A stretch of 64,000 nucleotides of DNA from Psammoneis japonica. Its lineage: Eukaryota. Location of the stretch: positions 62,001-126,000 of the forward strand of contig QPGO01000121.1 in the NCBI GenBank assembly GCA_008632985.1, read 5' to 3'. Positions within the stretch are counted from its first letter, which is position 1, and each line of letters opens with the position of its first letter. This document shows positions 683-38,258 of this stretch, one piece after another. A program made the position numbers and the translations under genes. The notes beneath the pieces were generated by a model that worked only from the letters and a program-made list of their open reading frames with translations, was not told the DNA's origin and did not search any database.

Positions 683-1438
683 CTAGGGTCGTGGTTCGTG
701 AGTCAAGTTGAAAAAGACTCCAAAAGAGCCAGGGGGTGAGTTGAAAGACTCTCCACACCTCAGCTGGTGCCGCACAAGAAATGGGTGCTGAGAGGGCATG
801 TTGAAAAGAACACCTCTGCTCCTGAAGTGTGGCTGCACCTCTCTGTCTCTTTTCTTCTTGCTGTTTGTGTTTGCACAGCTCCCATTGACTTTTTTTTTAT
901 CCTGGAATTGCCTTTGCATTTGAATTGAATTTTTTTGCAGTGCTCATTTTTTAAAATGCAAAAATTGTTCACAGCCACACCACCACTCACACCCGATCGC
1001 GCACCAAAAAACGAGAACATCATGCACCGCGATCAAAGCACGATGATGTGATGGCAATGGTTGATGTTTCTCCAAAATGCAGTGGTCTAACCACAATAAT
1101 TTGATGTGCGTGTGACCTTTTACACACAACAAACACAAAATGCATGGGAGTTGGTGGTTGGACCACCTCCTTCCCACAGACTTGTGGCTTGATGTTTTTC
1201 ACTTTCACCATGGTGAAGCACGGTGAAACTCAGAAAAAATCATGCAAATCACAAGCTGTTTAACCAAATTCAAGCTAAAAAAAACAGCAACCAGCTCCCA
1301 TTGAGCTGTGCAAAAACATGCACCAAAAACTTGGGTTCCAAGTGGGCAAATTTCAGGCTGGCAGAGCAAGTTTAAAAACATGCCTGAGCGGCACTGTGCG
1401 CAACAGAGCACACAGCAGCACCATCCTGGTGTCACACC
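683..1438. mobile_element. Unclassified TpA/CpG-depleted repeat fragment, possibly a DNA-transposon end, abutting the truncated 3' LTR of Copia-1
   Basis: Composition switches at about 690 to the TG/CA-rich, TA/CG-poor pattern of the neighbouring retroelements. No recognisable protein motif. It sits where the missing part of the Copia-1 3' LTR should be. Confidence 0.3.
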
Positions 1439-1776
1439 AACAAGTCAATGTCGCCAAAAGGGAATCCTGTGAGGTCTTCCATGCTGCTTCTTGCAGTTGT
1501 TGTGGCAGTCTGTGGCAGCTGTGGTTTGCCTTGGCATCAATGTAAACTGAACAACTGCTGAAATGACAGGCACCTCTTGATGCTGAGTGACAATCATGCA
1601 AACCAAATGATTCACTCCAAAGAGTGAGAGACACTCGCAGGGAATGTGGTGACACTTGTGATCTCATCAGAGAAGAACACTCCATCCAACCACACATCAG
1701 GACCAACATCCTTCTCATTCAACATGTCTGGGTCACATGATGTGACACCCATGTCTCACATTTTGATCTTCCAACA
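1439..1776 (-). repeat. 3' LTR of Copia-1 (outer end truncated)
   Basis: Aligns with 8163-8503 from aacaagtcaatgt..ccaaaagggaatcctg to tctcacattttg..ccaaca. Homology stops abruptly near 1439. Confidence 0.8.
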
Positions 1777-4700
1777 CACACTCCTGCTGCTCCTCGCATT
1801 GATGATCTGACATTCCCTGGCTTCATGATTGCACTGAGGCTTGGCATTGCCCTCTGGCATGCTCATTGCAAATTTGTCAGGTGCGTCAATGCTGTTGTCT
1901 GACAGCTCACACAAAGCGAACATCTGAATTGAGCTGCAATCTTCAAAGTCAAGGGGAGGAGCATGTGTCAAATTTCTTGTTTGCAATCCACCCCACTTGA
2001 TCATCAAAGCTCTTCACATGAGTGCAACAATCATTCTCTCACACTTCCTTGCTGTGCAGACCCACCCAGGTGACAAAATTTCACTTCATTGCAAGCCCAC
2101 TTCTGTCTGGGTTTTGCTTCAACAACTTCATGTTGGAAAAACCATGTCAACCTCAAAGTGTCCAGACAAGAACTGCGCTGTCATCTGTTGTCAAACCAAA
2201 CCAACAATGCATCAAATGGTCATGTCAGTTTGGTGCACATTCCACAAGGGGTCCACATGTTCTGTTCAGGGTCATGCCATGTGGGTGGGACAACTTGCTG
2301 ATGACCATTCCCACAGAAGGTCAATGTCTTCTTTGTCAAGGGCAAGCCGGAGCCTGTTCCCTTTTGACCTCACTGTCATTTCTTCACTGTGCTTGTCAGG
2401 ACAATCCGGGTCAGCGCCCTTTCCACAACATCTGCATCCTTGGATCCAGGTGTGTCCTCCAAGAATCTGCCAATGCTCCTTGGTCTTGTGTGCCACTCAT
2501 GCATGCTCCAGCATCTGGCACAAAACTTCACTTCCTTCACCAAACACAGAGATCATTGGTGAGGCAGCAAACATGTGTTGACATGCTGACAAACTTCACT
2601 TGTCCATCCCTTCTTTTGGTGTCATGTGCAACACCCATCACATTGAACCTCTCTGTCAACAGCTTGTGACATTTTTCTTCAAGTTCTTTCTTGCACTCAT
2701 CTTGCATGCCATCACAAAATTCCAGATGATCTTTCCATCCTTCTCAAATTCCAATGTCAACAATCTCATGTCAACCACCTTGCATGTGCAGGACAAATGG
2801 GTCCATTGGTGTTGACACATCTCCACTCTTTGCAAATCTGCCACATTCTTCCAGCACCTTCTGGGAATCTTGATCTTGGAATTGTTTCTTCTTCTCTTCT
2901 GACAATTCACTCAACTTCTTGAACTTGTCCCAATTGTGTCTTGATCACTGTTTTGCAAGAATGCATCATGTGGCTCCATGCCTTTGTTGATGTGTCCTGG
3001 TTCCTCATTGACAACACCGGTGTGCACAGTTGTCAACATCATGGTTGCTCTGAAGTTGAGCTGTGATTGGTTGAACTGCACGGTTCACCACATCCATGTG
3101 CATCAGAGTTCTTGTCTGACAACACAAACAACATTGATTTGTGCACCCTTGTGCTTGCCTTCTCTTCAGCAGCAGTCCATGATGGCTTGCTTGAACTTGC
3201 TGAACTTGTTCCTGCCCTGCAATGGCTCAGTCATGAAGTTTCCCAACATGTTGTCTGTTGAACAGCACACTGCAATCTAAGGTTGCCCTTCTCAATCTGG
3301 TCTGTTGCAAAAAAGTTGGATGTCGAGTGCTCCAGACCATTTTCCCATGCTCTTGTGCCCATTTGTCTCTGGCAGAACATTGCTCTGATTGTCCTGACAC
3401 AGGACATTCCAGTCAATCAGGTGTTCTTGGTGTCCCACAAACAACTTGGTCCACAGCATCATGGTTGTCACATTGTTGACTCCAACTGGTTTGGCCTCTC
3501 AGCACTGCTTTGGGTGCTCAGCTTCTGGCACTTGGAAATGGCTTGTGCCACACCATCACCCACAGTCATTGCACCTCCAGCGTGGCTTTTGAAATCTGGG
3601 TGCACTGCAAACAATGCACCCGTGCACCACTTGATGACTTGGAGGCATTTTGCACTTCTTTGGTGCAGTGACTTTGGTGCTTGATGAACAGGGCTGGCTT
3701 CTCCCAATCCTTGTTGGCAGGTTCTCTGACTCATGTGCACAGCTGTCCAGGTGTGGATTGTCTGTGCCTTGTCAGTTGGCAACCCACCCACATCACATGG
3801 TGGGTTCTCTCCTGCTGGTGTCATTGCAGCATCTTGGTGTTCTTGAACTTTTCCAGGAACTGGCTGACCATCTTGTGTGTGCAGTTGGTCACATTGATCT
3901 TCACCTTGCCCTTTTTGGTGAAGTCCAGAGTCATCCCCAGGGAGTCACACCTCTTGCCTTGAGCAGCAACAACATCACCACAGCTCCCATGCATCTTGGT
4001 GAGCCAACTCAGGAACATGTCATTAACCTTGGAGACCAATGGGTGTCATCCATGTGAAATCAGATGGTGTGCTGCTTGCCGTTGACTGCGCAGTTGGCAG
4101 TGCACTGATTGCATGAATTGAGCTTAACCCAACTTCTTCAAGTCTTTGCAAAATGATTGGTTGCACCACAGCAGGGATGCAACAAGCATGTTGCATGTTG
4201 CCCTGACAACAACTTGGATTCAGAGGACTCTCTCCCCCCTCTCCATGACCACAGGTTGTCTGCACAGGTTGGGATCAATGCTCACTGGCATGTTGACCAA
4301 CACTCCTGCAATCTTCATCACAATTTGGTCTTGTCACTGCTTGGGCTCTGGCATCTGTGTCTGGATGAACAAGTTTGGCATGTCCACACTCACAATGTCA
4401 TGCCCTTCCATGGCATCAATGATGGTCATCATTGTGATCCCTTCTGGCAATGCCATCAGACTGGCTAACTCATCCATGTCTGGCTGTTTTCTTGTTGGTT
4501 TCCCATTGCAGATGACTCATCCTTTCACACAACCATGTCTTGTTTCTCTGTGAGGAACATTGAGGCTGTCATGGGCCTCTTCCTCTCTGCTGGAGAAATG
4601 TCTTTGTCTCACACTGGTGCACAGCACCCTCTGTCATGGAGCCATCCAATCTCCTTTTCCAACATGTTTTGCCCTTGTTGGCCAAATGCTTTGAGGCCCT

Positions 4701-4986
4701 TGTGCAGCAATTGTTGCAGGGAGGCCAAATGAGGTGCCCTTTCCTGACCAGCCTCAGCCATTGATCTTGCACATGAATTGTGCCATTAACACTCCTGCTT
4801 CTGTGTTGCATTCTGTGCCCTTCTCCAGGTCACTGCTCACACTGGTTTGCAAATGATGGCAGCGCTCAAGTTCAGGCTGTGTCTGTTTCTCTTTTTTGGC
4901 ATCTGCCACTCCTGCAAATTGCACTTTTTGTTCTTCTCTCCATGGTCATTGTGGCATGATGGGATCCACTGCTTCCAGTCTGTTCA

Positions 4987-5094
4987 GGCTCATGTTGGTC
5001 TCTCTGTGGTTTGTTTCCATCCTGTGACATGTTGTGTCATGGCTCATGTTGGTCTCTCTGTGGTTTGTTTCCATCCTGTGACATGTTGTGTCAT
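4987..5094. repeat. Perfect 54-bp tandem duplication inside Copia-1
   Basis: ggctcatgttggtctctctgtggtttgtttccatcctgtgacatgttgtgtcat occurs at 4987-5040 and 5041-5094. Confidence 0.9.
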
Positions 5095-8000
5095 CACGTT
5101 CTTCTTGATCACCGTGTTTGTCTTCTTGACCATCACCATCATCATCATCCTCATGATGCTGGTCTGAACTGGAGACATTTCATCTGCAAGCATGTCTTGA
5201 GCTGTTTCACATTCATCATCAGAGTCTTCTGTTTCTTCCTGTTCTTCATGGTTTTTGTCATCAGTTGTTGCCTTTCTGGTTCAGTTTCCATTTTCTTCAT
5301 CAGCTTCATCATCTTTGTCATCACTTTTGGTGTTGCTTTCTTCTTTGTGGTCCAATCCTGCAGTCCAATCTGCATCGCACAGGTTGTCTCACATTCATCC
5401 ACAAATGCTCAACCACACGCACATGTGTGTCAGTCAGGGAGATTGGGGCACACTCGAAGGGGTTGAGTGACTTGCTCATGTGCAAGTTCACAGTGTGGTG
5501 TCTGCCCTTTGGAATGTCACAGCATGGTTTGAGGCAGACACTGTTAACGCCACATGCATCCCCAGTGTTTGATGGGTTGGGCTTGGTGTGGGGCAGGACA
5601 AATTCTCCAAAACAGCATCCAAGCTGTTTGTCACAGGTGAGGCTCTTTTGTTGCACAGTGGTGTGTGGACTTTGCATGTCTGAGATTCTTTCTTTCTGTG
5701 GGTGCATGTTCAACATGACAGTGTTCTCAATCACGGCATGCTTGCACATCAAAATGGGTGTCATCTTGCATGGCAGGTGGTGCACAGTTGCCCGAGTTTG
5801 CTCTTTGACAGTCTGAATGCTCCTCTCAATTTTGGGAACATGATTGCTGGCTTTTGCAGATGTCAACTCTGGGTCCATGCCATCAGCCACCGCTGCCAGC
5901 ATGTTCTTGAACTCTGGGTCACAATGAAGTCAATCTTGAATGCAGCCACATTGTGCTGTTGCAAGATCATGTCCTGTGCATTGCATGCATTGGCGTGGTT
6001 CTTTTGGACTTTGGTTTCATGCTTGATTGGTGCTTGATTGTTTTGTCCACTGCATGTGGCAGTTTGACTCCACACACTTCCATGATGTCAATGCAGAGTG
6101 TCATGCCTTCCCTCTGCTTCTCTTGTGCATTTCACAGGCGGCAATGCTGTGATGTCGTTCCTCTCATGGGAATGGTGCACACACTTGGCTTTGCCTTTTA
6201 CAGTGCATCTGTTGGTGGGTCCCATGTGCCCACCATTCTTTTCACATCCTCAGGTGCAATGGTCAGATCCTTCACCTGGTTTGATTGTAGAAATGGTGTG
6301 AAGTCATTCACACTTGGGGTTCCAGCTTTGTGGCACAATCTGAGTGCTTGCTCAGCATCAGCCACCTCTCTCTTAGAGCAGCCCTTGGCACTCTGTTCTG
6401 CCACGGGAACTGCCACTCTTGATGTGCCATTGTGCTTCTTCTTGGTCTTGCTCTTCTCATCCTTTGACAACATGCTCACATCCTTCTTGCACTCTGGCAG
6501 ATCTTCAGTGCAGTCAAAGAATCTCAAACTTGGGGCAAACATGTGCAGTCCAATGTTGTTGACCTTGATCACCACAACCTTCTCCCCAGTTTTCTCATCC
6601 AGCAGTCAGAACACATCCACCACTTGGTTGTCACAAGTCACATGGCACTTGTTCTTCATGTCCTTTAAATGTTTGATGTTTGCCACAGCATTGTCTCCCC
6701 ATCCTGGCTTTGTGCAGTCCTTGTCTGGGGCACCCAAAATTGCTCCACATTGCTGGTTGATTGGTCAATCTTGATCCTTGTCAGATGCACATTGTGCACC
6801 AGTTTCCAGCTTGCTGCCATGCCAAGGGAGGAGCCATTGTTGAGGAGAATCTCCTTGGAATCAATGTTTGTGTTCACTTGGTTCATGCTCACCTCTGATC
6901 TCTTGGTGACCAGCTGCAACCCATGCCATGCAGCACCTCTGCTTTTGCTAGAATGGGTTGATCCATTGGAGCTTGTGGTGCTGTCCACCAACAAATCATC
7001 ATCATTTCCACCTTGTGTTTGCATGTGGCTTTGTCAAGCAACACCCAGTTTCTTGCTGGCATTCTTGTGCCAAATGTCACAGGTGGTGACATCCCCTCTG
7101 TGTGATCACAATCTGGGAACTTGTGACCCTTCATTTGCCATGACAGTGACACATCATTTTGTCACTCTGGTTGCTCTGTTGAGCATGACTCTGGTGCTTC
7201 TGCCTCTCTGTTCCAGTGTGTTCCCATTGTTGTCATTGTTCCTGTTGTTTTGGCTGTGGTCATTCCTTGCAGCAATGCTCTGTCATTTGCGTGGATCATT
7301 GTCTTTTAGATGACCAAGCATTGCATTCATTGCCTCATCTGAGGTCTTCAGTTGGGCACCCTCCTTGCCTGGACTGCAGTCTCTCATGAAGCTCTTCTTC
7401 AGGCTCTTGCACTGGAAATGTGCAATCATTGCTGATCTCCATGGACAGATGTGCATCATCCCTCTGTCTTGCATGCAGACTCTTGCATCTCTTTCTGCTT
7501 TGCAGTGTTGACATCCTTGAACTCCTTCCTGTTGGAGATGAGCACACTCAGCATCTTGTCTCCCCCAGCCCTTCTTTGGCGTTGCATCTTGTTGGTTCTT
7601 GAACCTTGACAGGCAGTCATTCAGTGGCTCATTGTCTTGCTGTCTCACAGCTGGGATGTTCTTCAGGGCCCTTGCAAGGGCATTGAATGGGTGCCAACCT
7701 CTGGTTCTCTGTGTTTGACACTGCTTTCACCTGACAGAACAATCTTGGATCCTTCAAATGCTGGCATCTTGCTTGTGAAGTCCTCACACTTCATGTCTTT
7801 GTGGATCTTGCCAGATGTGCACCTTGGCTGCATTCCTTCTCTGCATCTGTCAAACAATCTTTTTTTTTTGACTTTCTTGAGTGTTGCATTTCAGGAAATG
7901 CTGCTCAGTGACAAAGAACAGAATTTTGTCTTGGACTGAAAGTGGTGTTTCTTGGTGTTGGTCTTTGTCTTTTCATTTGTTGACCTGTGACTTCCATCAC

Positions 8001-8162
8001 CTCTGCTGCAAACATGTCCTTGGGCCTGACAGCTTGTCTTGCCAACTCCCCTGCCACTCATTGTGCATGCATTCTGACAACTTGGCATTGGCAGTTGGCA
8101 GTGGTCTTGAAGCAAGTGAGGGCCAAACAAGCACTCCTGACTCTTTGGAGTAAATGTAGAAC

Positions 8163-8503
8163 TAACAAGTCAATGTTGCCAAAAGGGAATCCTGCAAGAA
8201 GGTCTGCTGCTCCACTCGCTGCACTTGTCTTGGCAGTCTGTGGTGGCTGTGGTTTGCCTTGGTGTGTCAATGTAAAATGAGTGACTGCCAAAACAACAGG
8301 TGCCTCTTGATGCCAACAGATGATCATGCAAACCAAATGTGGCTCACTCTGAAAAGTGAGAATGAAACACATGCATGGAGAATGTGGTGCCAACATTGGA
8401 GAAGATTGCTCCAGCCAACCATGTCAGGATCAACATCCTTCTCATTCAACACATTTGGGTCACATGACATGACATCTGGGTCTCACATTTTGGCACTCCA
8501 ACA
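8163..8503 (-). repeat. 5' LTR of Copia-1 (inner boundary may extend to about 8083)
   Basis: Homologous to 1439-1776. Ends ...ccaaca at 8503, followed by CCTGCC. Confidence 0.8.
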
Positions 8504-10490
8504 CCTGCCCCCCAGACAGCAAGAGCTGCTGCAAGGTGCTGGGGGTTGGCGCACCTCCTTGGCATTGTTGCTCCCCCAATGCCAACAGTTTGATGACCAA
8601 GGACACTTTTTGCAGCATTTCAGAGGGCAAAAACAATGGGTGCACACAAGCAACTTCCGGCTCTTCTCATCTGCCAGGCAGAAAGAGAGGGGAGCCAAGC
8701 ACCGCTTTTTGCTCCAAAGAGGAGGCAGTGTGCAAAGCAGCCGGGGGCTCCAAAGTGATTGACAGTGAAGGGGACAATGTGGATGCCAGCATCATGGAGG
8801 GCAGATGCAAGGGTTGCTTCATGTTGAGTTTTGTGTGTTCTGCAGAACTTCCGTTTGGTGCTTGTGTGGTGTGCCTTGGTGTGAGGGTTGAGGATGAGGG
8901 CAGGCAAGCCAGGAGCAGGCAATGGAGGAGGTTTGGGAATGATGATGGCAATCGCAAGGCAGCAGTGGCCAAGAGAGGGGAGGCAGCAGAAGCAGCTGGA
9001 TTGAGCTGGGGACACCTGCATCAGCGAGGCATTTGTTGAGGGGCAAGTGGGGCATGAGGTTGGTGGATTCATGATGGATGGCAGAAGAGTTGGTGCAAAT
9101 GCCAGAGAGGGGGGCAAGGGTGCATCTGAAATGCAGCAAAGAGGGCATCTTGGATGGCATCAGATGTGGTGGTCTTGTGTCCAAGGGATCAGCAACAGAA
9201 AGCATGGTCACCGCAGGGGTCAGCGGCGCCATTGCAGGAGGGGCAGCAGATGGATTCAAGGTGATCTGGGGAAATGGGCAGCCTTGGCTTGCATTGTGGC
9301 ACAAGGCAGAAATGGTCTGAGGCCAGGTGGTGTTGAAGAAAGTGAGCAAGCGAGGGATTGGAGGGAAAAGCTTGCAAGTGGAGAGAGGAGGGATGGGAGT
9401 GCAAGGAGGGCAAGGTGCAGAGGGCCTTGTTGTTGGAGCATCTGCAGTTGGTGGTGAAAGTGGGCATGGTGTGGGGCATGGAAGAGGTTGCAGAGCAGGT
9501 GTGATTTGACAAGGGCGGCAAGGGAGGGCTGAGTGGGGTCAAGCAGTGATGTGGTCGTGGTGGTGCCACAGTGTGTTTGAAGACTTGGCAAAGGCACAAA
9601 GGGCGGTGAGAGGTGGTCCATGTGCAAAGGGAGCGGGCACAAAAGGGAGAGAGTTTGAGGGAGTTGTTGTTGCCAGTGGTGGGCCGTGTGTGGTGCAGCA
9701 CAGGGAACGGGTGTGAGTTGGGGATGAGGAAGTGGATGGCAGCAGAGGTGGAGATGGAGCGGCGCCCGATGCCACCATCGGCACGCGGGGAGGTGGGCAC
9801 ACAAGAAGCAGGGTGTGGGGTGGCAAGCATTGTGATTGTGCTGTCAGGTGTTGCAGGAAGGCATTGCAGTGGCGTTGGACCTCTTGTTGGAAAGGCGAGG
9901 TCCAGGAAGTGAGGGGTGGTGGGGTGTCTGGGTCGAAACTGAAGTGGACGTCTGATGCCAGGAGGTGCGGAAGTGAGGAGATGGCACAAGTGCGGTGCAG
10001 GAAGCTTTTTGTTTGGGAGTCATGCAGGCAGAGGAAGAGAGTCAGTCAAGGTTGGTGCAAAATGTGGATGCTTTCTGGTCGAGGCAAGTGCTGGCAAAGT
10101 CAATGTGCTGCTGCCGATGGGTTGGCCAAGAAGGAAGCGGAGACCGGCGGTGATTTCAGGGCAAAGGGAGTGGGGTTGTTGGTGGGGTTGAGGAAAATAA
10201 GGGCTTCTTGAAGGGTGGTGGCATTTGCTGGAGGCAGCAGCACTTGCTGGAGGCAGGTTGGGCGAGGGGCTGGTGCCGAATGAAGAGGTGAGTGTGCGAG
10301 TCTTGGAGTGGTTGAGGTGCACTCAGTGTGTTCAGCCCAGTTCCTCGAGACATTGCAAGGACAACCATGGCAGTTCCGTGTGTGGCAACCAAATGCTGGT
10401 GTCGTCGATGAGGAAGGCAGTGGACGTGACGTTAGAAGATGGGAGTCATTGGTGTAGTTCGGCATTGAGCTGTTCGAGAACATTGTTTCT
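8504..10490 (-). mobile_element. Degenerate, 5'-truncated non-LTR retrotransposon with restriction-like endonuclease (CRE-like)
   Basis: Minus-strand fragments in the expected order: YTND (YxDD-like, about 10450), LNHSKT, GLRFLLGQPIGS, DGGIGRRS, zinc knuckle CPSCNGAADPCGDHAFCC (about 9190-9250), and REL motif HIVPFTVNHFGAPG (about 8760). Confidence 0.7.
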
Positions 10491-12844: not shown

Positions 12845-13622
12845 TCAAAAGAAAAGAAACCGACGCTTCCTTTCATGCTTGAGTGGATCCTTACCAACAA
12901 GATCAACATACTGTTGATACGTTAACCGATGCTTGGAACTCTGGTATCGTGTTAGTTTGATCTTTTGCAGCAAACCCTTCCGTACCGGCCCGGAATATCC
13001 AGATTTACGCACCAAGGATACAACAGTCTCCTGCTGGGACCATCTAGTTTTATGAAGAAGAATGTACCATAGAAAGAATAGGTTGAGAGATTGAGAAAGC
13101 CCTGAGCCGGTCTACTCCACCTCCACTCAATAAGAAACCAAGTACGACTCACCCTTGCTCCTTTGCAACTTCCGGGAGATACGTTGCAGAGTATTCAATA
13201 CCCCCTTCGCTGAACTTGATAATAATCCCATGAACGCCAACAACCCAATCATGACAGTCCAATGACTCCTCATAATTGACAAGCAGTGAAACCGCAACCC
13301 TGAGATGCGGGACTTCATCTGTTTTGATGGGTTCGAACCGCCGATCACGGAATGCAGAAGTCAACGCATACTCGCCCACGGCTGTCAGTAGTGGTCGCGG
13401 ACTCAGCGTCCCGATACAACCTCGTAACTCGAAATTCTCGGATGCAAATCGCCGTTTATCCCAGGTAACAAACAGGGGCGCTTCCGCCGCTGGAGGTATG
13501 GTGTCAGCAAAGAGTGGTCGACTCTGTTGTTGTCGCTGCTCGCTACTGAATCGTTTGCTCCTACTGGACGAGGATGAAGGTGCTAACTCATTGACCAAAA
13601 CATCAAAGCAATAGTGGCACAT
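12845..13622 (-). CDS. AMMECR1-domain protein
   Basis: Motifs PLFVTW, LRGCIGT, SAFRDRRF and ATYLPEVAKEQGW. Intron at about 13045-13152. Exon 2 reads WSQQETVVSLVRKSGY...TRYQSSK...FLFF*. The true start may lie up to about 100 bp upstream. Confidence 0.9.
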
Positions 13623-21702: not shown

Positions 21703-21731
21703 CCCCCCCCAACCCACTTAAACCCTATCAT

Positions 21732-26852: not shown

Positions 26853-28004
26853 ATGACGCGTGATTCTTTATTTCGTTCATCGGCATTTTTCGCCCTTCAA
26901 TTGCTATTTGCGCTCTCAATACCAAAATTCGCCGTGGCCGCAACACAATCCATCAGTTCCGCTTTTATTACAAGACGACCGTTTTCGCCGTTAATCAAAG
27001 TATCAGTCAATACAGGAGGGGCTTCGTGGAGATCTTCTTCTCTCCTAACTACTCGTGGTGGTGCGATATCAGATGATGAATACGATGAGGAAGAAGAATA
27101 TGATGAGGAATCATCCGAATTCGAAGACGACGACGATCTTTTCGAATTGGACGGCGCAGATTTTGATGAAGCAGAAGACGAATTTTCCGAAGAGAAGCTT
27201 GTAGAGCAAGTTTGGGCAGCTTGGCAAAAGACACCACCTGTCACCAAGGGATACATGACTGCCTCGTTTGCAGCAACCATGTTGGGTTACGTGATGAATC
27301 AAAACAAGTTTCCCGACATTTTCTTGCTCAAGTGGACACCCGTTTTGAAAAAGATGCAGATATGGAGACCCTTTACGGCATTTTTGAATTTTGGTTCCTT
27401 CGGCCTGGCCTACATTATGACATCTCACTTTGTCTGGACGTACATGAGTACCTTGGAGCGACTTCATCACAACCGACCGTATGACTTTTGGATCATGATT
27501 GCGTTTGGATGCATATCCATGTTGGTCGGATACGGTTGCCTCGGTATGAGTTCTGTCTTTTTGGGACACAACCTGTCGCAGTACTTTGTTTACGTCTGGA
27601 GCCGATATTTTGAAGGAATGGAAGTCAACATGTTTGAAATGTTTACACTCAAAGCAGAGTTACTGCCGTGGGCCTTTCTTGCACAGGTGAGTGGGAATGC
27701 GTGAATCTGGATTGTAGAGCAAAAGGCGCAACGTTGCGTTCGTTGGAGCCCTGTCGTATTTTCGTAATCTCATCGCCTTGCTTTCTTTCTTTTACAGACT
27801 TTCTTGTTGGAGGGTCAACCACCGATTCTCGACTTTCTAGGAATTGTTTTTGGACATGTGTACCATCACTTAAAGACGACTGGGGCGATTCGAGCTCCTC
27901 CTTTTGTTGTAAGCTGGTACGAGAGCGATAGTCCATTGAGCACGGCTATTCGAAATCGATACAAAACAATATCATCAGATTTTGAGCTGCAGGAGATGCC
28001 ATAA
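26853..28004 (+). CDS. Derlin (Der1 family), probably the symbiont-specific SELMA sDer1
   Basis: Der1 motifs TPPVTK, QIWRPFTAF, YVWSR, KAELLPW and GIVFGHVY. N-terminal signal peptide plus a transit-like segment ending RGG and an acidic tract. Intron at about 27687-27798. Confidence 0.85.
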
Positions 28005-28813
28005 AACTAAAAGTAAAGCACTACAGTACGAAAGTTTCTCTCTCCCTAGAATGAACTGTAAAAGGTATAAACTGTACAAACTGATAGCTCAACTACTCTT
28101 TCTGTGTAGGTATTCGTTTCCGCTTTCTGCTACCTGTCTACTAGCTCATCATCATCAAATGTTTAGAAAAAAGCAAAATCGATCATTTTCGAGGTCAACG
28201 ACTTGAGCCCTGTTACAGCACAAAACATGATTGAGCTCAACGCTACTCCTTGGTTCAACACCTTGGTCCATATCCCATCACCAGAGTCGATGCCAATGGT
28301 ACAGTCTCTCTCAAAAGAGCTCCTCATGTACAAGAAAGGATCTCACTGCCCCTGATTTACCCTGATAGCTCTGTATGATTCCAGCAGTGCTGTTATCATA
28401 TAGAAGGGAAGAACGCAGCATCTCGCCCTGCTTACTGTATGCCTTATTCACGATTGAAGCAACTTCACGTCTCTTGCGAACAGGATTAAAAGGATGACTC
28501 AGATGTCCAGTCATGCATTGACGGTATGGACTTATGCCTGACTTTGAAGATAAATCGAACCAGAACTGCGGCCACCATGCAAGCAAATACCGTGGTGATC
28601 TTCCCTCAAGTAGGGCCCTAGAGATCTGGAAAGGCGTCTCGCCTATCTTTGCCAACACGGCTGGGCCAGCCCGCACAAGTCTTGATCTTGGAATCAAGCT
28701 GAAACACAAGGTTTTTAGAACTTTTAGAGACAGTTTCGCGGAACCCTCGTGTGTAGCAAAGGCAACACTTCCCAAATCGCACCTTGGAGAGAAACAAGAC
28801 CAGACTGCATTCC

Positions 28814-30751
28814 TCAATGTTTTCTACGAGTTTTTCTCTTCTCCTGCACCAGAATACGACACAGCGTCGCCAGTCCCAAAATAATTGCAGCGGTCCCAAT
28901 AACCCAAAGGGGCCCTCGACGCAAAGGGCCATCGTTCTGACATTCTTCATCGTCTTCTTGCAAAGTCGATATCATCGGGGTGGAATCGTTGCCTCCAGGT
29001 TTGTCTTCATCAATTTCTTGCCCTTCCTTACTTACTTCCATAGTTTCAATATTGCTCGGATCACCGCCTTTGCCTTCTTCAAGTCTCCAGGTCACCCGTC
29101 TGAGGTCAACTGCGGTTGGCGTGATTCCAACACGCATGGCTTTTACACACAATTCCTTTCGCAGAACCGTTGCGTCGTAAACGTTTGGGCCACGTAAAAT
29201 CACCATCATATTTGACTGCGTCCCGTCAAAATGAGTGTAGCATATAGTGATGAGATGCATGTCAGGTTCAACCGGAGTTCTTCTAGCCTGAATGCGCTGG
29301 TACACTGGAGCAAACACGTCCGAATCCCAGAACGAATCTGGAACATCCAGTAGATTGTGCGGAATCCACTCCTTCAATACGTTCCAAGAAGATGACTTTG
29401 GCTTTCTTTCGTCCCCATGTCTCTTACTGCTTCGATACATCGCCAGCATGCTTCGAAGACAGTTGGACGGTGACCACCAAGAGATCATCTCCATTAAGCT
29501 GTATAAGAATGGTTCGCCGTAGACGAACTTGGAAGATTCCATTCCAACAGTAACCCGAGGCGCTTTGTACGTCGCGAACATCGCCCATTTTATAAGACCC
29601 TTAGCATCTTCTTCCCAGAGCCGGTTCTGCCTTATCATGTCCGTCATGAGAATGAGTTGTGCAGCATTTTTGACGACGGTGTGAATGTCGAACGCTGGAC
29701 TGATTCGTCTGTGGTCTCCGGATTGGACGGGTTCAAAAAGGCCTAGTTCACTATCACTTTGGTCCGCCGTCGACTGGGATTCCAAGCGCTGTGTCAATCC
29801 AAAACTTACTCCAGCAACGAACCTCTCCAGGCGACACCAATAGCTATCCTGAATGTCACTGTTTGTGGTGACTACTTCACAAGACATGTAGGCCAGGATC
29901 CCACCCCGTGACCAAGATTGCGATTTGGTGCGATTTCTAGAGTACTCAATGTCAATCCACAAAAAATACTCGCAAAAGTAGTCGTCCATGGCTCGTTTGG
30001 AGGCAATCTTGTGGATTTCAAGCCAATCGGAAATATCCATGCGTTTCGATAACCCCCCCGGGCCGTTGTGCTTGTATGAAACCGCAAAAATGGGATCACC
30101 CAAGGCAATCTTTCGACCACGAAGTACAACACCATCGCCTCGAGTGGCCGTGTCGACGTTTTGCCACCATTCAATCAACTTTTGTTCCGACTCACCAACT
30201 AAAAAGGGCCCGACAATACCCAGCTCCATTTCGTCCAAATCGTCGTTCGTGAGAACGGAGAGTCCCATATTGTACACTGGACAGTCTTCGTGTATTTCTG
30301 ACAGTCGAGCATAAAGGCTTACTTCACGTATCAACATTTGGATAAGAGTCTCAACCTTTTGTTGGTAGGGACCCATGGGGTTGGCAAGTGAAATGGCGTC
30401 GCTGGCCCTGGAATGAGCGGCCGTGGCCGCAGTGAGGACTGCGTTGGCAACATCGACCAGCTCCTCTTGGGGACCGTGCAATCTGGGACAAAGCTGATAT
30501 CGGGATCCGGTGGGATCATGCTCCGTGCTGGTTCGGAAATTGGCAAATTGTTGTACAATGGACTGTAGTTCTTCGACGCGATTTGGGTCTTCGGATAGTG
30601 TGTCGTTCCGCCCAAATCCCAATTCACACTGATACTCAATGTGCTCTTGAAGTCGACGCAAACTTTCTTTTATCGCCGCATCGGGAATTCGGAAGTAGCT
30701 TCCTTGTCTTTCAATCATTGTTCGCTCTCTGTCTCTCTTTGGGGGTGTCAC
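28814..30751 (-). CDS. Intronless 645-aa protein with HET/TIR-like motifs and a C-terminal hydrophobic helix
   Basis: Long ORF. Motif order FAVSYKH, YFLWID, GILAY, SYWCRLE resembles HET-domain signatures. C-terminal PLWVIGTAAIILGLATL. Confidence 0.6.
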   Translation of the reverse strand: MTPPKRDRERTMIERQGSYFRIPDAAIKESLRRLQEHIEYQCELGFGRNDTLSEDPNRVEELQSIVQQFANFRTSTEHDPTGSRYQLCPRLHGPQEELVDVANAVLTAATAAHSRASDAISLANPMGPYQQKVETLIQMLIREVSLYARLSEIHEDCPVYNMGLSVLTNDDLDEMELGIVGPFLVGESEQKLIEWWQNVDTATRGDGVVLRGRKIALGDPIFAVSYKHNGPGGLSKRMDISDWLEIHKIASKRAMDDYFCEYFLWIDIEYSRNRTKSQSWSRGGILAYMSCEVVTTNSDIQDSYWCRLERFVAGVSFGLTQRLESQSTADQSDSELGLFEPVQSGDHRRISPAFDIHTVVKNAAQLILMTDMIRQNRLWEEDAKGLIKWAMFATYKAPRVTVGMESSKFVYGEPFLYSLMEMISWWSPSNCLRSMLAMYRSSKRHGDERKPKSSSWNVLKEWIPHNLLDVPDSFWDSDVFAPVYQRIQARRTPVEPDMHLITICYTHFDGTQSNMMVILRGPNVYDATVLRKELCVKAMRVGITPTAVDLRRVTWRLEEGKGGDPSNIETMEVSKEGQEIDEDKPGGNDSTPMISTLQEDDEECQNDGPLRRGPLWVIGTAAIILGLATLCRILVQEKRKTRRKH

Positions 30752-33700
30752 TTCAAATTAAAAAATGGGATCATCCATCGTGGATGTTGATCCTGTACCG
30801 GTAATAGGGTTAGGGTTTATAAATGGGCAAGTAGATAGGGCGGCAGTAGCGGGAGTTCGTGAAGTACAGCACCATGACCCGTCAGATCTTTTTTTTTGAG
30901 TTTTGTTGGTGTACTTCTGCTCCTGGACCGCAACGCAACGCCTTTTGTTGTAAGTGACAGGGATCCCACATGACCTGCGAAGACCGCTCGCCGTCGCACC
31001 CAACGTGCTCTTCATCGCTCCATTGCTTCGGTCAAATGCACTCCGGCTCCTGCTCCACCTGCACCCGACAAGCTCCGTCTCTCTCGTGTCAAAGCCAACG
31101 TCCGTGCCGCTCTCAGCAAACGTCTCGCTCAGGCCCAGGCCCGCATTGATCGTCTCCAACTGAGACTGACAAGATCTGCTCCAACTTTCACGTCATCAAG
31201 CACTCTCGTGCTCGACTCGACAAGTCATTGGAATGAGCCACTGACGACAAATCCGAGTTTTTCGACCCCGAGCACAATCTCTGTGACCGCGCGATCCGTG
31301 ACCAATTGACAGCAGTCGACAACTCTTTTGACACTTTGGATGTCGATTTGGACACTTTGCACAACCGCCTTCGGAAACCTTCCGCACGTGACAACCCCGT
31401 GCCCTCTGCTCACTTTTCTGGGCCGCGCCCCCGCAAACATCGAACCAAATCCCGCTCGAGGCAATCACTCCGGATGACTCCCAACCAGGAACACCATGCA
31501 CTGCGATCCTGCCGTCACCGCCACGGCATGTCCCGATCCGAACCCTTTCACCATCCAGAAGCCGACTCCTGCTTTCGGCCTGAAACAAGGAAGTGTCAAG
31601 ACAGTGGCCCACAGCAGTCTCCACACCCCTCGTCGGATCACTTCATCTGTGCCACAGTTGACACCGTGCAATCCGACGATGAGGATGATGCTCCAATTCA
31701 AGGGGGGTCTCAACCCACTGCTGACGACCCGCCACCCCATGTCACTGCACCACTGGGGTCCCCAGAGGAATTCCCCCCGCTTTCATCTCCAACGGATCAT
31801 GCCACCCCTGCACTCTCCCATGTCGACCCATCCTCTTCAACCTCTGCGACTCACCTTTTTGATGTCGTCACTCCTGTGTTGAACAAAATGGATGAAGCAC
31901 TCGACGAGGCCCTTGCCTCCCCCACTCGTGCACCTGCTGTTGACTCGCCCGCTCCAGCTTCGTCCGACACCTCTGATGCACCTGATCCATCCGTGGACAA
32001 TGACATCAACGTCCAAGTTTGTCTCGTCACCTTCGAGGCTCTCTTCGACACCCAACAAGCTCTCGCACTGTTTTTCCATCGTGAGAATGAACGTGCCGTT
32101 GAGCTTCGCGACACTGTCGATTCGGCTAAAATGTCTTTCGAGCGCTTCCTTCATCGCTGCCCTGCTTGTGAAGCAAGCACTCTTGCACTTCGTTGTTTTC
32201 AGGACATGATGCATGCCGCCGAGTCTCTTTACCTGGAACTTGTGTTCCATCTTGCTCTCACACCGCGACGACATCCCGCTTCCCCGTCCGACCATCACTC
32301 ATCAGCCGACGACACCGTCTTCTCTCATGGTGCACCCGAGCACTCCTCGGAATCCCTTTCGAATTCATTGACAAAGCACGCGTCCTACACAAATTTGTGC
32401 ACTCTGAAACACCATCAGAATCCGCACACGCGACGACAAAAGTTTTGTGCATTTTTGAATGACTTGCGTGGGACCTTCGCATCTTTTCCGGAATTCAATG
32501 GCCCACTCAATGATTTTCCTTCTGTCCCTCTTCGCCCACTTCCAGACCATGCTGACAGTGCTCTCCATGCTCTCCTCTGGACGCATGTGGACGCGACGCA
32601 CCAATCTGACATTTCCGACCTTGAATCTCGATCTGGCAAACTTGCTCTCGAAGAACTCCAGCTGCGCTGTGCGCCCATCACTCAGGAACACAGCAACTGC
32701 TGTTCCAACGACTGTCTGCAAGTCTTCCTCAACTCCAACGAGTCCGCCAGCAGCTTCATCCAATGCTTTGAGCGAAAACTCTGGAGCCACAAGAATGCCG
32801 GCCTTCCAGTCAAGACTGACGCGGATGTCAGCACCCATTTTCTCAGCCAAATGGGCAGCCATCCCCGCTGCGATGCATCCATCAAGCAACTCGAATCCGA
32901 ATTTCGCACTGCCGCTCGTCTCTCCACTGCCACAGCTCCCCGGTTCAAGGACATCCGGCAAATGTTCTGTGACATCGACGAGCAGCATCACAACCAACAG
33001 CATCGTGATCGACTCTCGCATGGCTCTCGCTCCCGCTCTCACAACAACCATGCTCACCTTGCTGCCGTCAAACGCACTCCTCGGACTGCACAACGACAGC
33101 AACAGCAGCAACGTCGCCCAACCCAACCTCACGCCACCGAGATCTGTGACTGCTGTGGAAAGCGCAACCACAACGCTGCTGAATGTCGCTCTCGGCTCCG
33201 CGATCTGAAGAAGGGCACACCCAAGGATCAACCTGCCACCAAACCTCCTTGCAACTTGAGCGAAGTCACGTGTTTTCACTGCAAAAAAAGGGGCACCTTC
33301 GTCCCGACTGTCCCGAACTTGCAAAGGACGCAAAACAAACCGCTCTCGCCGCCACTGCACCTGCCATGCACTGCCGAGCAAAGGCACCTCCACAGAACGA
33401 CCAAATCATTTTCTGTGCTGCTTGAGCTGATGTGGAGGATGCTCACTCTTTTTCCTCCTCCTCAGACTCTGTCCCACCTCTGGAACCACGCCACGTCTCC
33501 TTTGACGACGAATCATCGGCCGGCTGCTCCAAGAGTGACTCCATCGCATCTTCCTCGACTCATGGAACAATGCCCACCATCACTCTCCAGGAACTCCTCA
33601 CTGACACTGCTTCAATTGATGGCAACGAAACTTTCTCCGCCACCTCAACCTCCACTGGTCCTCCGCCTCTGGCACATCATGACTGCGACTCCAGCACGGA

Positions 33701-36108
33701 TTCATCATCCACCATGCTGCCTTTGCTCTGTCGCTCATGCAAACCTGATGGCAACAAATCTTCATCCGCCTGCTCGACCTCCACTGGTCCACCTCCTCTT
33801 GCCCATCATGACTGCGACTCCAGCACGGATTCATCATCCACAATGCCGTCTTTGATCTGTCATCCATGTGCACCGGACGACAACACAGCCTGTCCTTTTG
33901 ATGAACCGCCTCCCGAGCACTCTCCTGCAGCATCCCCTGTCTGTTTCGATTTCCATGATGCTTTCACCACGGCATCTCATGCATCCAGGCACACCACAAT
34001 CTCTGACGATGACGACAAATCCGTAATCTCTGATCTCAGCTGTGACTCCATGGATGCGGTCGACACCGTCCCCTGTTTCTCATGCGACACCGCTGATTGT
34101 CACGTTCAAGTTGCATGCATGGCCGACGATCCCGACCAGTGCTGACCTCACCAACTGCCCCGCGACTCTGACCTCACGGACATCAGCAGTTGGTCTGTCG
34201 ACTCTGGTGCTTCTTCTCATTTCGTTCGTCATGACTCACTTGATGACAGCACCCCCTGTCACGTCCCTGTTGTCATTGCAGACGGCGCCACAGTCCATGC
34301 CACGAAAGTTGGGTCCATCACCCTCCGCTTCCAAGACGACCAAGGACATCCGGTCAACCTTGTCCTTGATCATGTTTGTCACATCCCAGGCCTCAACCGG
34401 AACTCATTCTTGGCACCCTCCTTCACGGCCAATGAACTCTTCAATGTCTGCATCACCACCAACATCACGACACTCGATTTTGGCGACGGGCACACTTTCA
34501 GTTTCCCGATGCTCCATCACAAGCGCTCCTGTCACCCACTTCTGACCCTCCCTCCGCAGAAGCAACCGATGCCCATGGCACCTCGAAACCAACAACCCAT
34601 GCAATCGACCTTGATCTTGCAGGCCGCCGTTTCGGTTGTCGCTCCTCTCAGAGTCTTTTGGCGGGCACAGTTGGCGAAGTTTGGCGCGACTGCCATGTTG
34701 CCCCCGGGACTGACGACTGTCTGGACAACGCGCACATCGCCATCTCCCAAAAGCGCAACCGCGTTAAATGTGACCCAACTGAACCGACACACACATTTTC
34801 ACGTGTGTTCATGGATGCAATTCCCAACCCTCACACAGTCGCACTCACCCCAAAAACGTCTTTTCCCTGCCATCTCTTTTTGGCAACCCACAAAGGACAC
34901 CACTGCGGTGTTCGTGGTCTCGAGAGTCCATCATCTGGCAATGTCATCGCCGCCTTTAAATCATGGATGACCGAAGTGCAATCCCAGGGACAAGTCCAAG
35001 ACACAAACTTCATCCGCGCCGACTCAGCGCAATGTTTTCTGTCCTCCGAATTTCTTGCCTTTGGTGAAGACAATGGAATCAAGGTCGAGGTCGCCGCTCC
35101 ACAACACCAGGAACAGAACGGGTTGCGGAACGCATGTGGCAAGTCACAAGCAATGTGATTCGATGCCCACTTGTCAACGCAAGACTCTCGGCACACTTCT
35201 GCCACCAAGCATTCATTCACGCCGTCGCCATCCTGAACGTCCTCCCGGCTAAAGGCACACGGCTCCCTGATGGCTCACTGGCTACACCGTACTTCCATGC
35301 ATTCAACAGACTCCCCAAGATTGGCAATTTTTGTGTTTTTGGATGTCCCGTCACTTTCGACCGACACCAACCTCTCAACCTGGACACTCGTCGCCCGACC
35401 ACCACCCAACAACAGATTCAACGTCGATCTCGTGGCATTCATGTCGGTTTTGCACCAAACCAAGCTGGACACCTCATCTGTGTTCCCGAGGGCATCGGCA
35501 CCAAGAATCTGATTGTTGTGTGCAACGCTGTTTTTGACAAACTTTTTGAATCATCACTCGTGTACAACCACGTCCCCTTCTCTGGCGCACTCCCGATCCG
35601 GAACATCTCAAACGATGCCTCTGGTCTCAAGTCACACAACGAGACTCCATTGGATGAACACACGGGAACCATTCAAGATTTCTTTGATGTTGACTCACCC
35701 CCTTGTTCTCCCACTCTTGCTGAAGTGCCTCCGGAATCCAACAACTCTGATTCGGATGAACCACCTCCAGCACCTGCTGCGACCGGACTCGGACGATCCA
35801 CTCGCACCAACGCTGGCCTCCACAATTCTGTGCGCTTCGCAGACAAGGAGCAACTCTACGCTGTGACCTCCTCCACTCCCCCAGTCGATCTTCTCGAGCA
35901 AACTCTCTTCGACGACTCACTCGCCATGGAATCTGCATGCAGTGCCTCGCTCGAATCCCCTTGGCCTGACTGCAACTGGCATCAATGCCCGGACCCCTTG
36001 CAACAAGCTTTGGAAGCCGTCCGTGCCACCACTTCAACCCCCATTGATGACTGCTCACCGGTTCCTCGCTCTTTTCGAGCCATCCTCAGACAACCTCCTG
36101 CAATTCGC

Positions 36109-36555
36109 TGCAGCATGCATGCAGACAAAAGGTTGTTTTTGTCACGCCCTTTGTGACATTTAAAGGCTGTGACACGTCGCCGTGATGCATTGGCTCTTGC
36201 CAGCAGCTGCACATTGCACTCCTCCCCATGCATCACGCGTCCATGCGGCTCTTTACCAACGTGCACTGACACTGCACGGTTTTGGCGGAACAGTGTGGGT
36301 ACGTGCAAAGGAACACACAGAACTGCACAGAGTTTTATGCGTTCGACAGTGATCAACGTTGCTGCAGACAACTCCCACTCAGGGTTTCGAACCCCTGGCC
36401 TCCTGCCCAATGGTTGCGATGAACCACTCCACTGTGAATTCACAATGCAGCATGCATGCAGACAAAAGGTCATTTTTGTCACGCCCTTTGTGACATTTAA
36501 AGGCTGCAACACGTCGCCGTGATGCATTGACTCTTGTTGGCAGCTGTGCATTGCA
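36109..36555 (-). mobile_element. TRIM-like miniature LTR element nested in the Copia-3 pol region
   Basis: 110-bp direct repeats at 36109-36218 and 36446-36555 with TG...CA ends. 4-bp TSD TCGC. Minus-strand PPT ggggaggag. Removing the element restores the host frame PPAIRDAWLRAIRSEL. Confidence 0.9.
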
Positions 36556-38258
36556 TCGCGACGCCTGGCTTCGTGCCATCCGATCTGAGCTCAAGAACCT
36601 CATCGTGGACAATGAAACCTTCGCTCTTCATGAATGTCCCCATCCAGACGATGAGATCATCAGCACCACACTTGCTCTCCATGCCAAAGAGAAATCTGAC
36701 GGCTTTCTGGAGAAACTCAAGGCTCGACACTGTGCGCGCGTCGACGTGCAACGCAAATCAGCCGATGACGACAATTGGTCACCAAATGCATCCTCTCGTG
36801 CCATCAAGCTCTTCCTGGCTTTTGCAGCAAAGGCCAAACGGCACGTCAAGAATGGTGATTTTGTCGGTGCTCACCTTCAAGCCCCTGCTCGAGGCCGTCT
36901 CTTTGTTCGCTTCGACCCGATTCTGAAGCAACATTTCCCCGAGTGCACCGAACATTTTGGTGCACCCCTCCGCCTCAAGAAAGGCATGCACGGGACCATC
37001 CGCAGCGGTCTTTGGTGGTCCACCGAGCTCTCCGAATTCTCACTTGCCCAAGGACACACCAATTCCAAGGCAGATCCCACCTTCTTTGCCAAGCACTTCC
37101 CCGACGGCTCACATCTCAAGCTCATTTTCTACACGGATGACATCATCCACTTTGGGTCTCACGACAGAGTCGAGAAGGATTTTGAGAACCTCACACGATC
37201 CAGGTGCAACATCACATTCAACGGTGACGTCACCTGGTTCTTGCAGATGCGCATTCACTGATGCGCCGATGGCTCCTTCTCTCTCGACCAACATCGACAT
37301 GTGCGCAATCTCCTCAAGCGGTTCCTCACTCCCAACTCACCTTGGGGCAGCCCCAGCTTTCAGGGTGCTCCAGCTCCCGTTGATTGTGTGCACTCCAAGG
37401 CGAATCAACCCAAGGACGCTGCCAAATCCAAGCAAATCGCGAACAAGTGTCCTGGTCTCCATTTTCGCTCCGCTGTCTGCTCCATCCTTTGTCTCGCTTG
37501 CAACACTCGCGCTGACATTCTCTGGATCACATGCAAACTTGCAAAGGCTTGCACCAACCCTGGCATGAAGGATTTTGATGCTCTTGTCCACCTTTTTGGC
37601 TTCCTCCGCAAACATCAAGACCTCGCCATCAAATTTTATTCTGATCCCACCGCGAGCCCTGTTCACGCGATTTGCGAAGCTCACAATGTCAGTCATTCTG
37701 AATTTGCAGTCTTCGCCGATGCCAGCTGGCAGGATTGTCCGGACACCGCCAAGTCAACCATTGGATTTATGGTCCACTTCAATGGGGCAACAGTGGAAGC
37801 CAATTCCACTGTCCCAACCCCTGTTGCAATGTCCACTGCCGAATCCGAGTGGATGGGTGCCTGCACTGGCGCTGTGGCTGTTGCTCACCTGCACATGTTG
37901 GCCTGCGACTTCACCTTCCTTGGCACCCGCCATCACTCCATTGACTCCCAACGCCCATCCACTGCTCCTACAATCCTCATGTTGGACAACCAAGCCGCAG
38001 TCCAAATGGCCCAAAACGACCAACAGACTCGACGGACCTGACATGTCGAGCGACGTTTCCAACATGTCCGCGAAGGGCAGCGCCTCGGTCATCACTTACT
38101 TGTTTGGATCCCCGCGGAAAGTCAATTAGCGGACTGCCTCACCAAAACTCAATGTGCAGACAAAATTTGGGTCATGGTCGACCGTGTCCTATGGCGCCTA
38201 CCTGCACACATGTTGTCATGAGCTCCTTATCACCTTCCCTCATTCGGTTCAAGGGGGG

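Follow-up and report, generated by a model that had tools for sequence, protein, structure and literature searches.

The repeat-induced point mutation (RIP) known from ascomycete fungi converts C:G to T:A mainly at CpA, creating TpA and lowering GC content, and is duplication-dependent. A mutator of mobile DNA that acts only at TpA and raises GC content would be its mirror image, and we describe here a likely footprint of this kind in a 64,000-nucleotide stretch of the genome assembly of Psammoneis japonica (GCA_008632985.1, contig QPGO01000121.1, positions 62,001 to 126,000 of the forward strand), referred to below as the window, with positions counted from its first letter. Three blocks of the window, which appear from their coding remnants to be dead Ty1/copia long terminal repeat (LTR) retrotransposons plus some repeat DNA without family assignment, are nearly devoid of TA (TpA) and rich in TG and CA. 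A preliminary description, made from the sequence alone, had proposed a reverse-RIP genome defence acting on these transposable elements (TEs).

The closest precedent, and the one directly relevant paper that our literature searches brought up, is a preprint by Mettrop et al. (bioRxiv 10.64898/2026.01.13.699255, dated 2026-04-14). The accessible part of its text reports that, of 302 nuclear mutations that arose in Bigelowiella natans mutation-accumulation lines, 231 fell in two integrated viral regions, that 230 of these 231 were A>G or T>C, and that all of the GC-biased ones were at TpA. At about 6e-7 per site and generation, the rate was some 1000 times the baseline, and 11 of 15 lines showed the effect. 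The B. natans genome was found to hold 124 clusters of windows poor in TpA and rich in CpA+TpG, as well as 324 coding sequences with a TpA frequency of 0.0018 that were enriched for reverse transcriptase, endonuclease-reverse transcriptase and DDE domains. The authors read the process as a RIP-like defence and proposed an ADAT2-like protein as the DNA adenine deaminase; ADAR and ADAT enzymes prefer a 5' U, in keeping with the TA motif (bioRxiv 10.64898/2026.01.13.699255).

The signature in P. japonica may be read as the diatom counterpart of the TpA-only A:T to G:C hypermutation of B. natans. Both consist of transitions from TpA to TpG or CpA only, on either strand and confined to foreign or mobile DNA, and both leave a long-term footprint in which TpA is low and CpA+TpG is high, with reverse transcriptase genes among the TpA-free sequence. 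The hosts differ, one being a rhizarian (chlorarachniophyte) and the other a diatom (stramenopile), and so do the targets: by the figures in that part of the preprint the viral regions of B. natans still have 3.3-9.2% TpA, whereas the Ty1/copia elements described here have lost 93-96% of their TA. The rate was measured in B. natans, whereas here the process is known from its footprint alone. Three features found here are absent from the accessible preprint text, namely a 3'-neighbour rule (TAA spared, TAT erased), the sparing of young LTRs and of an element tail, and a CpG decay that occurs alongside the TpA loss yet is independent of it; that text also makes no mention of diatoms, stramenopiles, LTRs, retrotransposons or CpG. 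The preliminary description knew of no such process in diatoms, and our literature searches likewise found no description of TpA-specific hypermutation in that group, but its novelty is narrower than it seemed: the same signature is in the B. natans preprint. This kind of signature was thus first reported in 2026 in another lineage, and what is new here is the diatom host, the LTR retrotransposons, and the constraints on mechanism.

Like fungal RIP, the process has left saturating, gene-destroying transitions at a single dinucleotide in mobile or repeated DNA, with a footprint legible in dinucleotide ratios. The polarity is opposite, as had been noticed from the sequence: TpA is destroyed, CpA and TpG are gained, and GC is raised, to 53-57% in the element of block 3 (element 3). 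With regard to the duplication trigger of RIP, the element families here are multi-copy and a 400-bp host duplication is unmutated; in B. natans, where the target region is given in the available text as single-copy, repeat dependence appears to be absent.

TpA depletion and its borders

Dinucleotide composition was expressed as the ratio of observed to expected counts (o/e) in the three blocks and in the non-TE background, which makes up 40,303 bp of the 64-kb window.

700-10430, block 1: 26 TA; o/e TA 0.04, CG 0.15, CA 2.07, TG 1.68
14430-19825, block 2: 22 TA; o/e TA 0.06, CG 0.23, CA 1.72, TG 1.69
30952-38096, block 3: 20 TA; o/e TA 0.05, CG 0.87, CA 1.39, TG 1.57
Non-TE background, 40,303 bp: 1614 TA; o/e TA 0.58, CG 0.99, CA 1.12, TG 1.13

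The TA depletion is confirmed, and is far beyond chance. In 1-kb steps, TA o/e was 0.00-0.10 across 1001-10000, 15001-19000 and 31001-38000, and 0.29-0.79 outside the blocks when steps straddling a border were excluded. The preliminary description had spoken of retroelements almost devoid of TA and rich in TG and CA, separated by genes with normal TA, and the ratios bear out both statements (TA 0.04-0.06, and CA and TG 1.39-2.07 vs a background of 1.12-1.13; background TA 0.58). What it had left out of the composition was the loss of CG in blocks 1 and 2. Individual TA positions place the borders at about 690/10433, 14430/19825 and 30952/38096. Six host flanks of 300 bp each are normal, with 11-23 TA vs 12 expected, and the leading 300 bp of element 3 contain 0 TA. 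The edges of the blocks are sharp, and the loss is confined to the retroelements, with the adjoining host DNA unaffected.

Arithmetic on the counts for element 3 gives an excess over background o/e of about 146 CA and about 149 TG, and about 210-270 missing TA. The excess of TG+CA is close to the TA deficit, so that the loss of TA is balanced by a gain of TG and CA, split about equally between the two. GC-biased gene conversion was also considered and was rejected on the grounds that it would lack dinucleotide specificity.

Depletion of CG is seen in blocks 1 and 2 (o/e 0.15 and 0.23) and not in block 3 (0.87). It fits a separate and independent process, the decay of methylated CpG, and in the diatom Phaeodactylum tricornutum 5-methylcytosine is described, in the part of the source available, as restricted to TEs (PMC12344493). 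Such decay explains CG to TG/CA changes in blocks 1 and 2 and at seven sites where the two LTRs of the element in block 2 (element 2) differ as CG vs TG/CA, but it cannot yield TG or CA from TA. As the sole cause of the signature it is ruled out by element 3, where TA was lost and CG kept, and the earlier contention that deamination of 5-methylcytosine is insufficient agrees with this.

A Pol-eta-type polymerase is another candidate cause. A>G at TA is a hotspot of Pol-eta, whose error-prone patch repair (WA to WG) could have been set off where cytosines of methylated TE DNA were deaminated, much as happens in phase II of somatic hypermutation, and CpG loss goes together with TpA loss in blocks 1 and 2. 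The counts of AA, TT and AT, however, are the same in the blocks as in the background (AA o/e 1.15-1.32 vs 1.19), so that TpA alone is affected, and AA, the other WA motif, is not depleted. In addition, element 3 lost its TA without CpG loss, and conversion of more than 93% of sites is far above polymerase error rates. The Pol-eta candidate put forward in the preliminary description is accordingly disfavoured, and we regard it as highly improbable.

Direction, strands and sequence context

Comparisons with relatives, in protein and in DNA, support a direction of change from TA to TG/CA, which is an A:T to G:C transition at TpA on either strand. Twenty columns carry an invariant Tyr in P0001-P0003, relatives about 50% identical to element 3 in protein, and at these element 3 has His nine times, Cys five, Phe three, and Tyr, Ile and Trp once each; its retention of the other residues invariant in the same relatives is 31-88%. 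In the reverse transcriptase (RT) of element 2, all six columns with Tyr in at least 60% of 149 relatives are altered, four to Cys and two to His. Tallied against the Tyr residues of P0009, the closest long relative used for this purpose, the 53 positions of element 2 read as Cys in 20 cases, His in 9, Phe in 9, Tyr in 3 and another residue in 12, and the 36 positions of the element inside block 1 as Cys in 10, His in 5, Phe in 6, Tyr in 0 and another residue in 15. In DNA, three metagenome contigs with intact relatives (L001-L003) have a TA o/e of 0.65-0.80 and a GC content of 42-47%, compared with 0.05 and 54% in the homologous part of element 3. Only 2 of 102 aligned TA sites of these contigs are retained in element 3, vs 16-57% for the other fifteen dinucleotides.

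The same direction (TAY to TGY or CAY) had been deduced earlier from Tyr codons that read Cys or His, and both levels of polarisation uphold it: Cys or His stands in 14 of the 20 columns examined for element 3 and in all six of those for element 2. The peptides that had been quoted, LKALCGMLVSSILCCKKF, NPHDPC, KRHNCL, KARHCAR, GAHLQAP and KGMHG, are present in the open reading frames (ORFs) 15325-15978 (minus strand) and 36494-37261 (plus strand). Searches for close copies of element 3 in the protein collection gave four matches among longer proteins, the best at 50% identity, and one match of near length, at 48%. A locus search with alignment A2 gave 0 relatives among 597 pattern matches, and one with P0001 gave the three loci L001-L003.

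These comparisons also bear on whether the elements might have inherited their composition with their family, or have been selected against TA while functional. The uniformity of the depletion is all that favours this explanation, to which we give almost no credence: conserved Tyr residues are replaced, including in the RT active-site region, the frames are broken by stops and shifts, and repeat copies have resolved the same sites differently. Nor do intact relatives share the low TA and the Cys and His residues, a possibility the preliminary description had raised against itself; they are TA-normal.

Both strands were used, and the outcomes are interleaved. The His (TA to CA) and Cys (TA to TG) outcomes number 15 and 9 in element 3 and 9 and 20 in element 2, and no strand-coordinated runs of His or Cys were found in them, runs being no fewer than in shuffles. 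Repeats internal to the elements tell the same story. The LTR pair inside block 1 has 19 adjacent TG<->CA doublets in 369 aligned columns, and a 112-bp duplication in element 3 has 4 such doublets between its copies, with CGs and one TTTAAA kept in both. Doublets of this kind between repeat copies indicate that each copy was converted independently, on either strand. A host tandem duplication of about 400 bp at 24107-24908 (95% identical), which sits at and past the end of the host ORF 22358-24304, served as a negative control and has 0 TG<->CA doublets, 20 TA per copy, and a mixed substitution spectrum.

The state of element 3 also speaks to tempo. About 93-96% of its TA is gone, while its CpG o/e is 0.87 and its pol frame breaks are few; TA is near saturation with CpG and frames largely intact, which argues for a targeted mutator and not slow decay, as the preliminary description had held. 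From the counts given in the preprint (211 mutations, 3,132 generations, 6,169 TpA), the rate may be roughly estimated at 1e-5 per TpA in each generation. A loss of 95% of TA would then take a few hundred thousand generations, a span in which about one site in 10,000 would be changed by ordinary mutation, and this would fit element 3.

How efficiently a TA was converted varies with its 3' neighbour: TAT ranks first, TAC and TAG follow, and TAA comes last. The surviving TA (n=59), with 3' neighbours counted on both strands, are followed by A in 49% of cases vs 21% in the background and by T in 6% vs 29% (chi-square p = 1.5e-13). Relative to background, retention across all three elements is 0.13-0.19 for TAA and 0.01-0.02 for TAT. 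Neighbours of TG and CA within the elements are nearly uniform, so the surviving TA are not simply back-mutations. Broken down by 3' neighbour, the gains of TGN and CAN did not agree from one element to another, and TE composition acts on them as a confounder.

Anatomy of the elements and read support

The assignment to Ty1/copia draws on an RVT_2-type RT, an integrase upstream of the RT, and LTR pairs in element 2 and in the inner element of block 1. The parts of the three blocks are as follows.

690-10433, block 1: composite, an inner LTR element within other hypermutated DNA
700-1435, outer-left segment of block 1: 8 TA vs 29.5 expected, 12 CG; partly TA-depleted
1436-1785, minus strand, LTR of the inner copia element: pairs with 8161-8512; 1 TA vs 14 expected
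1786-8160, minus strand, interior of the inner copia element: integrase followed by RT/RNase H; 14 TA vs 255 expected
8161-8512, minus strand, second LTR of the inner copia element: 2 TA vs 14 expected
8513-10430, outer-right segment of block 1: 1 TA vs 77 expected, 42 CG; GC-rich, 52-58%
14501-14725, minus strand, 3' LTR of element 2: 93% identical to 19599-19825; 3 TA, 7 CG
14726-19598, minus strand, interior of element 2: gag, integrase, RT and RNase H; 13 TA, TA o/e 0.04, CG o/e 0.19
19599-19825, minus strand, 5' LTR of element 2: 6 TA vs 9.1 expected, 8 CG
30955-38279, plus strand, element 3 (Ty1/copia): Pfam Pol_BBD and RVT_2; P0001 matches 34805-38257 (tblastn)
31237-33855, plus strand, gag-like frame of element 3: 872 codons stop-to-stop; CX2CX4HX4C zinc-knuckle (CCHC) pattern in the translation
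36109-36220, plus strand, 112-bp duplication of element 3, copy 1: 100% identical to copy 2 in purine/pyrimidine code
36446-36557, plus strand, 112-bp duplication of element 3, copy 2
38097-38279, plus strand, 3' tail of element 3, spared from TA loss: 5 TA vs 7.4 expected; homologous to the pol C-terminus of P0001

Block 1 is TA-poor, as had been said of it, but where a single retroelement had been marked it proved to be composite, with the inner LTR element at 1436-8512 lying inside other TA-poor DNA. The LTRs of that element could be paired only by BLAST in purine/pyrimidine code, in which transitions are ignored (361 columns, 90%), and the copia polyproteins P0009, P0010 and P0017 match its pol from 6761 to 3172 on the minus strand (tblastn). 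The DNA around it is probably an older element decayed beyond recognition. Its outer-right segment has Pro/Ser/Thr/His-rich frames on both strands and no Pfam match in the one ORF scanned there, and in block 1 as a whole 0 of 7 ORFs scanned matched Pfam. A 54-bp tandem duplication at 4987-5094, inside the inner element, has copies identical in purine/pyrimidine code.

Element 2 (14501-19825, minus strand) has LTRs of 225 bp, and the same three polyproteins match it from 19203 to 14843 (tblastn), integrase before RT. Its RT ORF (15325-15978, minus strand) has 3658 relatives at E<=0.001 in a HMMER search against a representative library, and 0 of the 5 element 2 ORFs scanned matched Pfam. Element 3 is bounded by a 22-bp direct repeat (30954-30975 and 38258-38279). 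A purine run at 38251-38258 directly precedes the 3' copy, which suggests that the 3' LTR is truncated, with 22 bp left, and normal TA-rich, host-like DNA follows at once. No LTR pair was found for this element, including by BLAST in purine/pyrimidine code. Its pol has three in-frame stops and few frame changes. A dispersed repeat of about 137 bp (27916-28052 and 38582-38715, 85-89% identical), without TA depletion, has one copy about 300 bp downstream of element 3, and is perhaps a fragment or a short non-autonomous element.

Sequencing reads from three runs (X1-X3) were compared with the window. Over the elements neither X2 nor X3 provided coverage, from which no conclusion was drawn. In run X1, 921 k-mer contigs were placed on the stretch, of which 197 were at least 99% identical to it; the contigs reach 1.9 kb, have a depth of about 55 over unique DNA, and mostly have 0-5 substituted letters among those listed (0-64 over all listed), and contigs of such length with so few substituted letters indicate that the reads are accurate. 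X1 contigs span both junctions of element 2, one of them (14140-14618, left junction) with 0 differences. Summed contig depth over the elements is 270-1060 vs about 55 for unique DNA, which shows that the element families are multi-copy and diverged. Where the window differs from other copies, the places number 137 for A>G, 179 for T>C, 145 for G>A and 169 for C>T, with 281 transversions. As all four transition directions occur, the differences are not solely TA-restoring.

The reads bear directly on whether the signature is an artefact, in which a modified base at TpA (and 5-methylcytosine at CpG) in TE DNA was miscalled as TG or CA while the true sequence is TA. Such an error would fall exactly in the DNA with the best chance of carrying modified bases, blocks 1 and 2 show changes at both palindromic pyrimidine-purine steps, and the reads come from one sample and one study. 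We nevertheless consider an artefact very unlikely. The X1 contigs are accurate, and run X1 contains 0.62 of the sampled 31-mers of 29500-39400, a stretch of which element 3 makes up 74%, which is higher than the ceiling of about 0.48 estimated for the case that all converted sites are truly TA. Just 1 of the 40 best-supported differences, on its own, restores TA (from TG), and near-identical repeat copies carry opposite calls, TG vs CA. Miscalling would also have to pass over the TA kept in the element 2 LTRs and the element 3 tail, and the CpG kept in element 3.

Weighing the footprint and its candidate chemistry

Several observations weigh against a real hypermutation of the elements as described so far. 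The relatives used to polarise the changes are about 50% identical in protein. Runs X1-X3 come from one sample and one study, possibly the source data of the assembly itself, and several places in element 2 are covered only by contigs of other copies. The doublets between the LTRs inside block 1 could come from CpG as well as TpA, because both were lost there; those in element 3 should be TpA-derived. The LTRs of element 2 are near-normal in TA (3 and 6 vs about 9 expected), compared with 13 vs about 195 in its interior, and the final 185 bp or so of element 3 are TA-normal (5 vs 7.4 expected). The preliminary description, which had the elements depleted throughout, was right about their interiors but not about the element 2 LTRs, nor about element 3, which runs to 38279 with its TA-normal tail. 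With these points set beside the evidence above, we consider it likely that the footprint is a real, TE-confined, TpA-specific hypermutation.

The spared LTRs and tail are not predicted by uniform action on an integrated element, and an added assumption is needed. Candidates are that the edited domain is smaller than the element, that the interior was edited before insertion, or that the assembly switched copies; with multi-copy, diverged families, the assembly could have done so at the element 2 LTRs or at the element 3 tail. Between the two element 2 LTRs the differences comprise 7 CG sites, 3 TA sites, 2 doublets, 5 other transitions and 4 transversions (some at ragged ends), and three TA of the 5' LTR (19599-19825) face CA or TG in the partner, so that both processes went on after the LTRs were formed.

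Editing before integration would take place in the retrotransposition cycle: a deaminase comparable to ADAR or APOBEC3 would act on the RNA of the element, on its single-stranded cDNA or on both, and copies already mutated would then be inserted. The mutated domain would in that case stop precisely where the element does and not extend into host DNA, as seen. In element 2 about 95% of the interior is converted, and the LTRs, identical at insertion, are little diverged and keep their TA, as expected if the interior had been mutated beforehand. Single-strand intermediates, however, predict one dominant direction, whereas both are seen at similar frequency and interleaved. The 19 discordant doublets in the LTRs inside block 1 and the 3 TA sites in the LTRs of element 2 imply later changes, and the maximum that an APOBEC3-type enzyme would leave just upstream of the polypurine tract falls, in element 3, in the part that was spared. 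To our knowledge ADARs are confined to animals. APOBEC3 (C to U in minus-strand cDNA) and ADAR (A to I in double-stranded RNA) do resemble the present process as cases of deaminase-driven retroelement hypermutation in the portion of the source available (PMC5224506), but they act on replication intermediates with a one-strand bias, unlike the near-equal, interleaved use of both strands here. The B. natans process acts on integrated single-copy DNA according to the accessible preprint text (bioRxiv 10.64898/2026.01.13.699255). Editing before integration therefore seems improbable.

We infer instead an enzymatic process of defence that acts in situ after integration and is homologous to that of B. 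natans. A mutational process confined to the elements would convert nearly all TpA to TpG or CpA, hitting either strand about equally and orders of magnitude faster than ordinary mutation. The host system would recognise silenced foreign or mobile DNA in place and edit it until its genes are destroyed, with Tyr codons becoming Cys or His and the catalytic Tyr of the YxDD region becoming His. In chemical terms, the adenine of 5'-TA-3' in DNA would be deaminated to hypoxanthine, which would be read as G. Any one daughter duplex would receive a single edited strand, so that TG or CA would result, but not CG. Enzymatic deamination of adenine at 5'-TA-3' is our leading guess, being the simplest chemistry and the most likely one, and we lean towards it with modest confidence.

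The same footprint could be produced from the thymine side, by a TET/JBP-type oxygenase or another modifier that makes the T of TpA pair with G (for example as 5-formyluracil), leading to T>C. TpA is palindromic, so T>C and A>G leave identical footprints. Dinoflagellate DNA is enriched for 5-hydroxymethyluracil at TpA, and 5-formyluracil mispairs with G. Nothing in the sequence prefers this chemistry over adenine deamination, and the sole published proposal for the signature, as far as the available preprint text goes, is the ADAT2-like adenine deaminase (bioRxiv 10.64898/2026.01.13.699255). We rate it as the less likely of the two, though worth keeping in view.

Whichever chemistry is responsible, any mechanism must explain the use of both strands, the 3'-neighbour effect, the spared LTRs and edges, and independence from CpG methylation decay. 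The process appears not to be limited to one alga, and it may be a general genome defence in a major group of phytoplankton. It is possible, if somewhat short of probable, that diatoms share the DNA-editing immune system of Bigelowiella, with adenine deaminated in place at the TpA of either strand until the element no longer functions. The system would in that case be old and widespread at least across the Stramenopiles-Alveolata-Rhizaria (SAR) supergroup, with a readable rule (TAT > TAC/TAG > TAA); its edited domain could be smaller than the element, and the spared LTRs could let hypermutated copies transpose in trans. Genetically tractable diatoms would then be where to look for a eukaryotic DNA adenine editor that occurs naturally. 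What the signature suggests is a naturally occurring enzyme that changes A:T to G:C in DNA at a defined motif, and such an enzyme would be of interest for base editing. In genomes of this kind, TE age, TE annotation and GC content would need rereading, as hypermutated copies escape Pfam (0 matches among the five element 2 ORFs).

The host sequence of the window includes an ORF with an AMMECR1 domain (13149-13724), whose top match is 68% identical and whose best named relatives are from Helicotheca, Attheya, Cylindrotheca, Craspedostauros and Mayamaea; all of these are diatoms, which indicates that the host is a diatom. A 723-residue ORF at 51385-53556 (minus strand) has an AAA_16/STAND-type NTPase domain, with weaker NACHT and nSTAND1 matches, and is possibly an immune-type host NTPase gene. 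A tandem array at 63393-64000, with register shifts of 84, 168, 336 and 504 bp, lies within the open frame 63254-64000 (plus strand) and reaches the end of the window.

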